From the IMG/VR virus record IMGVR_UViG_2744054627_000014: a DNA stretch of 4,575 bases; one strand, 5' to 3'. This document shows, in pieces, positions 143-4,575 of the stretch; position 1 is the first letter of the stretch, and every line of letters begins with the position of its first letter. The translations under genes and the position numbers were made by a program. Source of the DNA: a virus. Lineage: Duplodnaviria; Heunggongvirae; Uroviricota; Caudoviricetes. The notes beneath the pieces are model-generated. The model worked only from the letters and a program-made list of their open reading frames with translations. It ran no database searches and was not told where the DNA came from.

Positions 143-401
143 TAAATTCACTTAAATATCAATAAAGTAGTATTCACACCCTACAAAATACCACATTTGT
201 GGTTTACACAATACAACTCAAATTGTATCTTTAGCCACAAGTCGAACGGCGCGACTCTAAACCATGCGTCGGGACCGTGGCGGGACAGGATGTCGGCAAT
301 ACGGGTCAGTAAGTTCCCTTTGGGGTGCGGCGAAGCACTGTCTAATTAATACAAGTCGAAGCCGCCGAACCACTAAAGTGAACTGAATGAGGAATCACAA
401 G

Positions 402-865: not shown

Positions 866-1863
866 ATGAGTTTAGAAACCAGTCTAGAACTTAATAATCA
901 ACTTCTGGCACAACATAATGCGCTGCTTGAACGTCTTATCCGCACAATGGCATCAGGTATTGTTATGCATCCTGACACGATTTCACGAGTGCAGGAATGT
1001 CGGGATACAGCAACTGAAACTGAAAATATGTCAGCGGCAATGACACTGGATGATCTGGAGTTCAGCGACGTTATCGCACTGGCTGGTTTCTACCCGGTAG
1101 CCACCCCTATCACAGAAGACATGCTGCAACGTGCTGTTGCCTACCGTGATGCTGAAGGCGATAAACGAGTAGTTCAGATTGATGCTCTCGACAGCGCATT
1201 ACAGGGCGTCAAACGAGCCAGAGCGCTGCTTAAACCTGCTCTCCTGGACCTGTCCCGTAACATTCTTAAGTTCTGGGACGACCTGCCAACCATCGGCGAG
1301 CGACGTGCTTTTGCCGAGCAGCTACTTGATGCACCTGCAGATGGGCGTGATGAAGTTAAGCCGAAAAAGGCCAGTAACAAAGATGGAGAACGCACGGGGC
1401 CGTTTTACGTCAAAAATATATCCGGCACAGCAGCCAGTGAACTCCACACCTTACGCAAGTTGAACGAGATGCTTAAAAAGGCTATATCGAGATCAACCGT
1501 GTTGAGTACCTTCAGCTGCAGGAAGAATTTGCACGCAGAGACGCAGCAAATTCCAGCCAGAATAATGACGCCAAAGATGACCATACAATTGATTTCGCGG
1601 CACTACGCAAACAAGCTGAAGGGTTGATCCTCCAGTTAGCAAAAGGGGGTTACCGGGCAGAAGCTATTGCAATTCTGGAAAAACAGGGAGCCAGGAAACT
1701 TGGTGAAGTAACGGATGAAAATCTCGCTGAAGTAATCACCCTGGCTGAAAAGCACTGGAGGGTTAATTATGCCAGACGTTCATGCACGACTTTCCCCGTC
1801 ATCGGCGCATCGATGGATGCGCTGCCCAGGAAGTCTGGCGCTGGAGGCCACACAACCGGATAA
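866..1863 (+). CDS. Hypothetical phage protein, about 330 aa if frame-corrected; apparent single-base frameshift in the A5 run at 1475-1479; 3' end uncertain
   Basis: ATG 866 is preceded by GAGGA (854-858, 7-nt spacer); the in-frame stretch from 758 to 865 translates to low-complexity, non-protein-like sequence. Frame 2 reads ..[10 protein letters not shown] and then degenerates, while frame 1 continues from the same point with protein-like sequence ([32 protein letters not shown]) to 1863. No family recognised. Confidence 0.5.
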
Positions 1864-3070
1864 AGAAACAACTTTTGCAATCGAGGGCACTGCAGCGCAC
1901 GCGCTTGCTGAAAAAGTTCTACGAAACAGGCAAAGCCACCCGGAACACTACGCCGGATGCAATGTTTCTATGTTTCTCGGCTCATACCCCCTTCGCGAAA
2001 ATCCTGATGATACATCTGGCCCACAGGTGGATGATGAAATGGTCGAAGCCGTTGGCCGGTATGTTGATACGGTCTGGACTCTTGCACAGAATAATGAACT
2101 ATTGGTTGAACAACTTGTTGATTTCTCACATATAACGGGTGTGGAAGAATCTTTCGGAACTGCCGACGGCATAATCATCGCGGGTAACGAATTACAAATC
2201 CACGACCTGAAATATGGCAAAGGCGTCCGCATTGATGCAGAACAAAATGAGCAACTACAACTGTATGCTCTGGGTGCGCTCGAACAATTCAGCATGCTGT
2301 ATGACTTTGAGACTGTAAGATTATTTATTCACCAGCCAAGGCTCAACCACGTTTCAGAATGGTCGTTAACCGTACAGGAACTTCAGTCTTTCGGTGAACG
2401 GGCACTGGAGGCCGCAACCAGTGCGATCCTTGTTCTCAATATTGCTGAATGCGAAGGCATTGAGACACTACCGCTGGAAAACTTCATACCTGGAGAAAAA
2501 CAGTGCCGCTTCTGTAAAGCAAAAGCTATTTGCACTGCCCAGAAAATGCAGCATTTACAAACAGCGGCCAGCGACTTTGAAGATCTGACAAAGCCTGTCA
2601 GCGAAATAATCACCAATGCCAGCGCACGTGTACCTCTGTTAACCATTGAGCAGCTTGCGGAGATCTATAGCCAGGCCGACTTTATTGAATCCTGGCTAAA
2701 GGCAGTACGGGACCGGGTTCACAATGAACTCAATGCCGGACATCCGGTACCGGGGTTTAAACTGGTAACAGGAAAACAAGGTAACCGGGCCTGGAGTGAT
2801 GAAGAGGCAGCTCGCGCACTTCTGAAGGACCAGTTCAGGTACAAAACTGAAGAAGTATTCGACTTTAAACTTATTAGTCCCACAAAAGCCGAAAAACTTA
2901 TCAAAAAGGCCAGTCCGCGCCGTTGGTCAAAAGTCGAGGCACTGATAACACGAGCTGATGGTAAACCCACCGTCGTTCCCGAGTCAGACCCACGCCCCGC
3001 ACTCAATATCAACCCTGTAAATGATTTCGACGACGTATCCGACGATACGCTAACCGCAGACCTCATCTGA
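1769..3070 (+). CDS. PD-(D/E)XK family nuclease, Cas4-like / RecB-like exonuclease (DUF2800 type), 433 aa, intact
   Basis: GGAGG at 1757-1761 sits 7 nt upstream of ATG 1769. N-terminal [14 protein letters not shown] motif, nuclease core GTADG...IHDLKYGKG (D...D-x-K, about 2203-2226), QLQLY (QhxxY) motif, and a CxxCx5C cluster ([10 protein letters not shown], about 2504-2533) which with the N-terminal Cys resembles the four-Cys Fe-S arrangement of Cas4/AddB nucleases. Single uninterrupted 1.3 kb ORF. Confidence 0.85.
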
Positions 3071-3085
3071 TTTAAGGAAATACCC

Positions 3086-3630
3086 ATGAAACTGAAGCTG
3101 AACAATGTTCGTCTGGCCTTCCCGTCTCTGTTTGAAGCTAAAACTGTAAACGGCGAAGGCGATCCGCGTTTCTCCGCAGTATTTTTAATGTCTCCCAAAC
3201 ACCCACAACTGGAAGAAATCCGTAAAGCTATGAAGCAGGTAGCGAAGGAAAATGGGGGAGAAGTGGGAGTCCATTTATAACCAGCTGGAGAAAAACTCAA
3301 TCTGTGCCTGCATGATGGTGATGAAAAGCAGAGTATGAAGGCTTTCCCGGCAATTTCTTCCTGAACGCTGCTAACAAAGCGCGCCCAGCTGTTCTTGATC
3401 GCGATCGTTCGCCACTAATTCAGGCTGATGGACGTCCCTATGCAGGGTGCTATGTAAACGCCGTTATCGATATCTGGGCACAGGACAATAATTTCGGTAA
3501 ACGCATTAATGCCTCACTCGGCGGAGTCCAGTTCCTGCGAGACGGCGATGCATTCGCTGGCGGCGGAGTGGCAAGCGCTGACGATTTTGACGATATCAGC
3601 GAAGGTGCTGATGCTGAAGCACTGATTTGA
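3086..3630 (+). pseudogene. DUF2815-type phage protein (putative ssDNA-binding partner of DUF2800), reading frame broken by three +/-1 frameshifts as written
   Basis: AAGGA at 3074-3078 sits 7 nt upstream of ATG 3086. N-terminus MKLKLNNVRLAFPSLFEAKTVNGEGDPRFSAVFLMSPKHPQ matches the family as I recall it. Protein-like sequence continues across frames 2 -> 0 -> 2 -> 1 (..KWESIYNQLEK / KLNLCLHDGDEK / EYEGFPGNFFLNAANKARPAVLDRDRSPLIQADGRPYAGCYVNAVIDIWAQDNNFGKRINASLGGVQFLRDGDAF..) to TGA 3628-3630. Shifts are at 3249-3258 (A4/G5), 3291-3295 (A5) and 3324-3327 (A4). Confidence 0.8.
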
Positions 3631-3639
3631 GTATCTATG

Positions 3640-3676
3640 CAGCCCTCATTTAATTGTGGGCTGTTTAATTTTTGTT
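3640..3676 (+). terminator. Putative rho-independent terminator downstream of DUF2815 (CAGCCC / GGGCTG stem, 12-nt loop, T-rich tail)
   Basis: CAGCCC at 3640-3645 pairs with GGGCTG at 3658-3663, followed by TTTAATTTTTGTT (3664-3676); starts 10 nt after the DUF2815 stop. Confidence 0.45.
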
Positions 3677-4170
3677 CCTCTTTCAATGAACGAACTTTAT
3701 TATCATATATTCTTTGTGCGAATTCGTTAATTTGCTTAGTTAAGTTGGAATCTAACTTATAATATTTTCCGCCCACTCTATTAAATTCTTCCTCATTATT
3801 ATTTTGGGTTCAATTTGATTAATTCTATTTAAATGCATATCACGACCATTTTCAAAGTTAAAATATGCTTGGTCACTAACGTTCTGCCCATCAATTGTAT
3901 AAGTAGTACCACTTGCATGGAAAGATATTTGAGTCTTTTTACCCGCATATAGTTCATTATGTATAGCTTTATCAGTACTTATTATTCGCAGCCATATCCA
4001 AAACTTATCATTAAGAATATATTTATCAATCAATTTTTAATATTAAAAAAATCTCTGCCTATCAGTAATAGAGGCATCAGAAAATAAACACCAAGAAAAC
4101 TCAACGCAGCTGTAATAATAGATTGAAAAAGATATTGATAATTCCATTTTATTCTCCAGAAATTAGACAT
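3646..4170 (-). CDS. Hypothetical protein with a predicted N-terminal transmembrane helix, encoded antisense in the AT-rich island; frame interrupted at homopolymers; both ends uncertain
   Basis: Minus-strand ATG (complement of 4168-4170) opens a 46-aa frame [46 protein letters not shown] (one strongly hydrophobic segment), stopping at 4030-4032. One base added in the T5 run at 4034-4038 would join it to track ORF 3752..4033 (..LIDKYILNDKFWIWLR...NLIEWAEN). A second shift at the T4 run 3765-3768 joins the only frame that stays open through the AT-rich DNA at 3640-3776 (YYKLDSNLTKQINEFAQRIYDNKVRSLKEEQK). A possible stop TGA (complement of 3646-3648) would need a third shift at 3669-3673. No good Shine-Dalgarno at 4170; an alternative ATG at 4147 has GGAGA-N5-ATG but a different frame. 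Confidence 0.35.
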
Positions 4171-4575
4171 GAATAGTATACTATGGGGCGACCTGGAAAC
4201 CTATTGTGACATTCCGATCAACAACGGTACCCATGCGTATGCCGAAGGCGTTGAAGTGATGCTTTTCGCATGGGCTATCAACGACGGGCCAGTAAACGTG
4301 TGGGATATCACTGCCGGTGGTGGTATTCCACACGGCTTATACGAAGCAATCGCAGACCCTGAAACCCTGCTTTATTTCCATAACTCTCACTTCGACCGCA
4401 CCGTTCTGCGTTATGCAATGCCGCGACTGGCACCGCCTGTCGAACGTTGGCGCGACACGATGGTGCAGGCGCTGGCGCACGGTCTCCCGGGTCTCTGGGG
4501 GAACTCTGCGAAGTACTAGGCGTCCCGCAAGACAAAGCGAAGGACAAAGAAGGTAAAGCGCTGATCCAGCTGTCT
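4169..4575 (+). CDS. DNA polymerase, family A (phage PolA-like), N-terminal 3'-5' exonuclease domain; partial, continues past window end; one frameshift near 4486-4492
   Basis: N-terminus [36 protein letters not shown] carries the Exo I D-x-E motif (DLET, 4190-4201). Frame 2 stops at TAG 4517-4519, but frame 1 continues from about 4492 with protein-like sequence ([27 protein letters not shown]) to the window edge; the shift lies in the CCCGGG run at 4486-4491. Weak or absent Shine-Dalgarno. Confidence 0.8.

Follow-up and report, generated by a model that had tools for sequence, protein, structure and literature searches.

Gene content of the contig

The window, i.e. the entire stretch of 4,575 nucleotides analysed here, harbours the replication module found in a common temperate phage of E. 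coli (prophage) and is byte-identical to LSBR01000923.1, the whole of contig number 923 in the draft assembly GCA_001641855.1. The prophage is also present in four independent assemblies, which served as references (L005, L006, L007 and L009; from NCBI GCA_050544845.1, an ENA metagenome scaffold, Logan ERR3905490 and NCBI GCA_002109655.1), and these are mutually identical across 4,585 bases. Indel sites were called by base-by-base alignment of the window with all four. Since tblastn with the intact proteins overlooked the short segments between junctions, direct coordinate mapping was used instead.

Unless stated otherwise, the features lie on the plus strand. The 3' end of a cI/LexA-like repressor gene (1-76), truncated by the contig start, is free of indels; its counterpart in L005 (7679-8302) encodes 207 aa including HTH_3 and Peptidase_S24 domains, and the annotation of the relative L001 reads LexA family protein. 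Downstream, an ORF of 64 aa (402-595) has its final codons shifted by contraction of a C5 run to C4 at 588-591, the corresponding ORF of the window extending to 632. No Pfam, PHROG or PADLOC match was obtained for this ORF or for the antisense 166-aa ORF described below. An unannotated RprA-like sRNA element was also noticed at 564-667. Two further runs are shortened in intergenic DNA, namely the T-run of a terminator hairpin at 658-662, which is T5 here and T6 in the reference, and an A-run at 704-708 (A5, reference A6) shortly upstream of the start of a 49-aa ORF. Because the relative L010 likewise has T5 at position 658, this site may be naturally variable. The 49-aa ORF itself (721-869; phrog_11981) is broken by a change from A5 to A4 at 778-781, while the gene for a 300-aa hypothetical protein (866-1766; phrog_6784) contains two contractions, A6 to A5 at 1475-1479 and A5 to A4 at 1748-1751; upon restoration, its product aligns with positions 1-298 of the 298 positions of phrog_6784.

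The adjacent DUF2800/PD-(D/E)XK exonuclease gene (1769-3070) is intact and encodes 433 aa, as had been recognised in a preliminary description made from the letters of the window. Precomputed Pfam matches to PF10926 (DUF2800) and PF12705 (PDDEXK_1) exist for the identical 433-aa protein, the product matches phrog_69 (exonuclease, 7.6e-135), and the intact protein is found with 100% identity on many contigs, in 103 blocks of the collection. The following gene, coding for a DUF2815/Enc34-type (gp2.5-like) single-stranded DNA-binding protein (3086-3630), bears four contractions: A5 to A4 at 3249-3252, G6 to G5 at 3254-3258, A6 to A5 at 3291-3295 and A5 to A4 at 3324-3327. In its unrepaired state the ORF reaches 34.7 bits against PF10991 and covers profile positions 1-57 of 176 only, whereas the restored 182-aa protein attains 151.5 bits against this Enc34_ssDNA-bd profile (cut-off 26) over positions 1-172.

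An AT-rich variable slot with a GC fraction of 0.28-0.32 harbours an ORF of 166 aa on the minus strand (3646-4147), which is affected by five indels, i.e. the contractions T6 to T5 at 3669-3673 and T5 to T4 at 3765-3768 as well as additional A's at 4032/4033, at 4045-4051 (A7, reference A6) and at 4122. Finally, the 5' part of a gene for a family A DNA polymerase, PolA (4169-4575), is truncated by the contig end and shows a change from G4 to G3 at 4489-4491. The window thus holds only the N-terminal ~135 codons of PolA, and the 116-aa ORF found there yields no Pfam match on its own, while the intact homologue of 687 aa carries PF00476 (DNA_pol_A) and matches phrog_17. Restoring the bases results in full-length proteins with end-to-end Pfam and PHROG profile matches, the restored genes matching PF10991, phrog_6784, phrog_112 and phrog_17 over full length.

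Indel inventory and dependence on run length

Relative to the four references, the window displays 16 single-base indels and not a single substitution (0 mismatches in 4,573 aligned bases), which corresponds to about 3.5 indels per kb; nonsense substitutions, larger deletions and IS insertions were likewise absent from this comparison. One-base homopolymer contractions account for 13 of the 16, the other three being the additional A's within the AT-rich stretch. In terms of context, 14 are located in runs (the 13 contractions, whose runs are 4-6 long, and the expansion from A6 to A7), and the remaining two are A's outside runs that adjoin long A/T runs. A possible 17th indel, TT to T at 4573/4574, may be present at the contig end. 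Six reading frames are affected, those of the 64-aa, 49-aa and 300-aa ORFs, DUF2815, the antisense ORF and PolA, in addition to the two intergenic sites at 658 and 704, and coding status is consequently no barrier.

The preliminary description had reported frame jumps at 1475-1479, 3249-3258, 3291-3295, 3324-3327, 3765-3768, 4034-4038 and in the CCCGGG run of PolA. All of these are real and lie within 1-2 bases of the places given there, with the second resolving into two separate losses. At 4034-4038, the jump was rightly seen but is not due to a lost T: the T5 run is unchanged and is preceded by the additional A at 4032/4033. Moreover, the count of seven sites was too low, the sites at 588, 658, 704, 778, 1748, 3669, 4045 and 4122 having been missed, and the estimate of "four or more" genes is to be replaced by the figures above. 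Continuity of homologues across the junctions had been set beforehand as a test, and every junction is spanned by the unbroken proteins that the identical prophage encodes.

Contractions are confined to runs of at least 4 (13 of 13), a class covering 6.8% of the sequence (P ~7e-16). Their rate rises with the true run length, from 0/3273 for runs of up to 3 and 1/41 for runs of 4 to 6/20 for runs of 5 and 6/8 for runs of 6 (Fisher tests: 4 vs 5, P = 0.004; 5 vs 6, P = 0.04). The affected runs have a mean length of 5.4, adenine is the base most often affected, and the number of contractions per gene tracks the run content of each gene. This also applies to the DUF2800 gene, which has five runs of 5 and was spared for want of a run of 6: with the empirical per-run rates 1.8 errors are expected and none is observed (P = 0.12). 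Its integrity was therefore rejected as a sign of selection or biology.

The indels are, moreover, nearly private to the contig. Among ten relatives examined, 15 of the 16 occur in none, and no gene-breaking indel is common to any of them; the only recorded source of the frameshifted products (253 aa; 116 aa) is LSBR01000923.1. The relatives L001, L002 and L003 differ from each other by 1.2% substitutions, yet two of the three pairings are devoid of gaps over a shared stretch of 3,027 bases; the third (L002/L003) has 13 unlocated gap columns in an alignment that includes ~150 bases to the left of this stretch. In this stretch, the window shows 9 gaps. An error on the side of the references was considered and rejected, given that four sources concur, that genomes of induced phages and complete genomes in RefSeq have the same run lengths, and that only these lengths give full-length profile matches.

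Origin of the frameshifts

In view of the comparison between assemblies, the frameshifts are almost certainly sequencing and assembly errors that do not form part of the DNA of the organism. According to this explanation, the true sequence would be an ordinary, intact prophage replication module in a heavily fragmented E. coli draft, comprising the repressor, small ORFs, the 300-aa protein, the DUF2800 nuclease, the DUF2815 single-strand-binding protein, a cargo ORF and the family A DNA polymerase. Homopolymers would have been counted too short by the base-caller or in the consensus, with a frequency that increases with their length, and three spurious A's would have been inserted in one AT-rich stretch. 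A model of pure under-calling leaves these 3 of 16 events, the insertions, uncovered, two of which fall outside runs in a 28-32% GC context. As for the platform, the best fit seems to be flow-based sequencing of the Ion Torrent or 454 kind: a 4.5-kb contig bearing the number 923 is more in keeping with flow-based short reads and a fragmented assembly than with long reads, and assembly indels of Ion Torrent relative to Illumina have been reported with a mean run length of 5.5 and adenine as the most affected base (PMC12046094). A search of the literature and accession records for notes on the sequencing platform of LSBR01/GCA_001641855 found none, nor any paper that cites the accession; a neighbouring accession turned out to come from an unrelated organism.

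Genuine pseudogenisation, in which a cryptic prophage has undergone recent and real slippage in its runs, possibly within a mutator lineage deficient in mismatch repair, is very improbable. It would accommodate the preference for runs, because replication slippage favours them at a rate that is exponential in run length (PMC8510543), and the dispensability of prophage genes would render frameshifts tolerable; in addition, the T5 run shared with L010 at 658 hints at natural variation at one or more sites. On the other hand, zero substitutions accompany 16 indels in 4.6 kb, whereas in mutation-accumulation lines of mismatch-repair-defective E. coli substitutions outnumber small indels by ~7:1 (6.02 vs 0.85 per coding sequence; PMC8510543). 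At that ratio, the likelihood of obtaining indels in 16 of 16 events is ~3e-15, an approximation that takes no account of local context, and a mutator origin, whose spectrum should be dominated by substitutions, chiefly transitions, is rejected on this ground. Furthermore, a general process that leaves 3.5 indels per kb and alters 6 of 8 hexamer runs would amount to some ten thousand indels genome-wide, and the absence of nonsense substitutions, larger deletions, IS insertions and gene-breaking indels shared with a relative also speaks against decay, which should leave mixed lesions inherited by related strains.

The preliminary description, which had likewise favoured sequencing error, is thus supported by the absence of substitutions beside 16 indels, by the run-length gradient and by the uniqueness of the indels to this contig. 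It had retained a recently inactivated cryptic prophage as a live option; this is effectively excluded and the hedge can be almost removed, owing to the same imbalance, the steep length dependence, the intergenic hits and the occurrence of the frameshifted products on this contig only. A related scenario, extremely unlikely in our estimation, holds that the contractions are physically present in the prophage of the isolate as a result of run-specific slippage that spares substitutions, the prophage having been inactivated purely by homopolymer contraction. For instance, the family A polymerase encoded by the element might replicate it beyond the reach of mismatch-repair surveillance.

A negligible probability is assigned to functional frame-shifting, by which the runs would serve programmed ribosomal frameshifting, transcriptional slippage or phase variation and the genes would still be expressed. 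Transcriptional slippage is possible on A-runs, and several of the sites are runs of A4 to A6, but runs of 4-5 are well short of the lengths usual for slippage or contingency loci. Programmed frameshifting and phase variation are rejected since the homologues, including those of DNA-identical prophages, all encode each protein in one continuous frame and since the affected positions are spread across two intergenic places and six reading frames that are unrelated to one another. The DUF2815 gene alone would require four successive shifts within 75 bases.

Significance and relation to known systems

The appearance of decaying genes is hence an artefact in a draft contig of low quality, derived from an ordinary prophage of E. 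coli whose true sequence, an intact replication module, is already well sampled. As a quality flag, this means that pseudogenes, decay of the prophage, programmed frameshifting and new short proteins should not be inferred from the contig, nor, probably, from the assembly GCA_001641855.1 as a whole. The truncated ORFs to be regarded as artefactual comprise products of 253, 79, 64, 93 and 116 aa as well as an antisense ORF of 145 aa. Conversely, the contig offers a clean, small-scale calibration of how error scales with run length.

Among known classes of error, the homopolymer miscalls of Ion Torrent, 454 and nanopore data share with the window one-base indels almost exclusively in runs and without substitutions, under-calling that grows with run length, A/T runs as the worst affected, and fragmented assemblies with many artefactual frameshifts in genes. 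The window differs from this class in that two of its three insertions lie outside runs, and its small, numbered contig disfavours a long-read assembly. With respect to gene content, the phages vB_EcoM-606R2, 689R2 and 611R5 together with prophages of ~159 complete E. coli genomes exhibit 96-99% nucleotide identity to the window. In these phages and prophages the module follows the same order, i.e. small ORF, 300-aa protein, DUF2800, DUF2815, cargo slot and family A polymerase, the cargo between DUF2815 and PolA varying among relatives; unlike in the window, the genes of these phages and of the matching prophages are all intact. At the level of families only, the arrangement resembles the replication module of the type found in Enterobacter phage Enc34, in which PF10991 likewise has DUF2800 and DNA_pol_A as neighbours.

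Source of the contig and the underlying prophage locus

The window and contig LSBR01000923.1 of the NCBI draft assembly GCA_001641855.1 are byte-identical over the contig's full 4,575 bases. A literature search found no paper naming this assembly, a heavily fragmented E. coli draft in which the window is a single short contig, number 923. Matches at 96-99% identity were obtained from about 159 complete E. coli chromosomes and from three induced temperate phages (vB_EcoM-606R2, -689R2 and -611R5). The matching records share a gene order of cI/LexA-like repressor, small ORFs, 300-aa hypothetical protein, DUF2800, DUF2815, a variable cargo gene and family A DNA polymerase, and all genes from repressor to polymerase are annotated as intact in them. 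Longer contigs carry the whole prophage, including a VapE-like primase/helicase, Q antiterminator, holin, terminase, portal and SNF2 helicase, with the integrase adjoining acpS-pdxJ. Many contigs, from 103 blocks of the collection, encode a DUF2800 protein identical to that of the window. The combination of DUF2800 nuclease, PF10991 single-strand-binding protein and family A polymerase is that of the Enc34-type replication module; the locus underlying the frameshifts is a prophage replication module of this type, well sampled before now.

Single-base indels in homopolymer runs

Four independent assemblies (NCBI GCA_050544845.1, ENA scaffold ERZ28583654, Logan ERR3905490 and NCBI GCA_002109655.1), mutually identical over 4,585 bases, served as the reference. 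Against them the window shows no substitutions and 16 one-base indels, comprising 13 contractions and three extra A's; in alignments with three RefSeq/GenBank relatives, too, gaps are of one base only, each in or adjoining a homopolymer run. From reference to window, C5 is shortened to C4 at 588, G6 to G5 at 3254-3258 and G4 to G3 at 4489, while T6 becomes T5 at 658 and 3669, and T5 becomes T4 at 3765. The remaining contractions affect adenine, with A6 reduced to A5 at 704, 1475 and 3291, and A5 to A4 at 778, 1748, 3249-3252 and 3324. The extra A's lie at 4032/4033, in the run 4045-4051 (A6 to A7) and at 4122. A 17th change may lie at the contig end, where the final two bases point to TT having become T (4573/4574). 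Base-level comparison confirmed all seven frame jumps of the preliminary description, although the event placed in the T-run 4034-4038 is in fact the extra A directly before that run, and nine further sites had been missed.

Among ten relatives, 15 of the 16 indels are seen in the window alone. The exception is the T-tract at 658, which reads T5 in the window and in the Logan assembly L010 and T6 in the other relatives aligning across the site; it may be naturally variable or have been miscalled twice.

Runs of at least four bases make up 6.8% of the reference but hold all 13 contractions (P ~7e-16), and the proportion contracted climbs with true run length from 0/3,273 at three bases or fewer to 1/41 at four, 6/20 at five and 6/8 at six (Fisher tests: four versus five, P = 0.004; five versus six, P = 0.04). 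Natural variation was gauged by pairing relatives with one another, which differ by about 1.2% in substitutions. Two of the three pairings are gap-free over a 3,027-base stretch in which the window has nine gaps. The third pairing, L002 with L003, shows 4 gap openings and 13 gap columns in an alignment that extends about 150 bases left of this shared stretch; these gaps may fall inside or outside it.

This spectrum also bears on real decay of a cryptic prophage, which we consider very improbable even in a mutator lineage. Per coding sequence, mismatch-repair-defective E. coli mutation-accumulation lines acquire 6.02 substitutions and 0.85 small indels (PMC8510543), a ratio under which 16 of 16 changes being indels would have a probability of the order of 1e-15 to 1e-14, a rough figure that ignores local context. 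Nor would a living genome plausibly bear such a load: the density reaches 3.5 indels per kb, and of the eight hexamer runs six are altered. The decay reading thus fails on the mutation spectrum.

Genes affected and restoration of their products

Direct coordinate mapping assigned one indel each to the 64-aa ORF (402-595) and the 49-aa ORF (721-869), two to the 300-aa ORF (866-1766), four to DUF2815 (3086-3630), five to the antisense 166-aa ORF (3646-4147, minus strand) and one, possibly two, to PolA (4169 onward). Two are intergenic, at 658 in a terminator T-tract and at 704 before a start codon. DUF2800 (1769-3070), described earlier as an intact 1.3-kb gene, indeed holds none. Improbable intactness would have hinted at selection and so at biology; this reading was rejected, since the gene has thirteen runs of four, five of five and none of six, for which 1.8 errors would be expected at the empirical per-run rates, and zero errors are not improbable (P(0) = 0.12).

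The frameshift-aware alignment proposed in the preliminary description bore out the junctions: intact proteins match the window with 100% identity on both sides of those resolvable by tblastn, and putting back the reference run lengths yields proteins spanning nearly the full profile length. Restored DUF2815 covers positions 1-172 of 176 of Pfam PF10991 (151.5 bits), compared with 1-57 for the window's own ORF, and the restored 300-aa protein covers 1-298 of 298 of phrog_6784. The frameshifted products are on record from LSBR01000923.1 only. To phase variation, transcriptional slippage or programmed frameshifting as an explanation we give practically no credence: it fails because all homologues are single-frame, the sites fall in six unrelated frames as well as at two intergenic positions, and four shifts in 75 bases would be needed for DUF2815.

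Variable regions and an RprA-like element

The slot between DUF2815 and PolA (3640-4170) has a GC content of 0.28-0.32 versus about 0.48 elsewhere. Its cargo in the window is the antisense 166-aa ORF, which has a hydrophobic N-terminus and no match in Pfam, PHROG or PADLOC; in relatives (L001 5167-5766, L003 4582-5211, L004 11918-13242) it consists of 200- or 210-aa ORFs, or of Nmad5 plus a UCP028583-family protein. The slot appears to be a variable site for morons or accessory genes. Downstream of PolA, outside the window, accessory genes likewise vary; among them are a CAP12-PCTIR TIR-domain protein in L004 (15424-16182) and a 342-aa protein with weak HATPase_c similarity in the four reference assemblies (L005 14475-15503), possibly defence-related cargo. 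Among these prophages the immunity region is a mosaic: the relative L008 has another repressor/Cro pair and, in the GC-rich untranslated sequence ahead of the 64-aa ORF (about 8476-8590 in L008; window 237-360), lacks the 13-base segment TCTAATTAATACA (window 341-353).

An RprA-like small-RNA element at 564-667 on the plus strand (error-free copy, L005 8796-8894) takes in the 3' end of the 64-aa ORF along with errors 588 and 658. Against Rfam RF00034 (RprA), whose gathering score is 70, the window reaches 46.5 bits and the error-free copy 49.7 bits (E 4.6e-5), both falling short. The 24-base block AATTGCTGTGTGTAGTCTTTGCCC equals the RprA consensus exactly and is followed by a terminator hairpin, the stem of which differs from that of RprA on both sides with pairing preserved. 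In roughly 5,300 E. coli genomes, BLAST pairs the element with the annotated chromosomal rprA (84.8% across 46 bases); H35, the sole full-length prophage copy among the matches listed, has no feature annotated under the match, and a literature search found no paper using the term 'RprA-like'. The element may be an RprA mimic carried by the phage, or an sRNA derived from a 3'UTR.

Origin of the frameshifts and comparison with known error profiles

The frameshifts are almost certainly explained by under-calling of run lengths, whereby sequencing would have under-counted homopolymers and the miscounted lengths would have entered the consensus of a poor, fragmented assembly. This is argued by the lack of substitutions beside the indels, the steep gradient with run length, the indifference of the indels to coding status, their near-complete restriction to the window, the record of frameshifted products from one contig only and the fragmentation of the assembly. 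For the three extra A's, which occur in 28-32% GC sequence adjoining long A/T runs, we conjecture phasing-type errors.

In a comparison of Ion Torrent with Illumina assemblies, affected runs averaged 5.5 bases with adenine most affected, and Ion Torrent genomes are over-represented among RefSeq exclusions for "many frameshifted proteins" (PMC12046094). The window resembles this profile, its affected runs having a mean length of 5.4 and A as the commonest base; we infer a flow-based platform, such as Ion Torrent or 454, as the best fit. The frameshift pattern is almost certainly no real biological feature and belongs to a familiar class of homopolymer sequencing artefacts.
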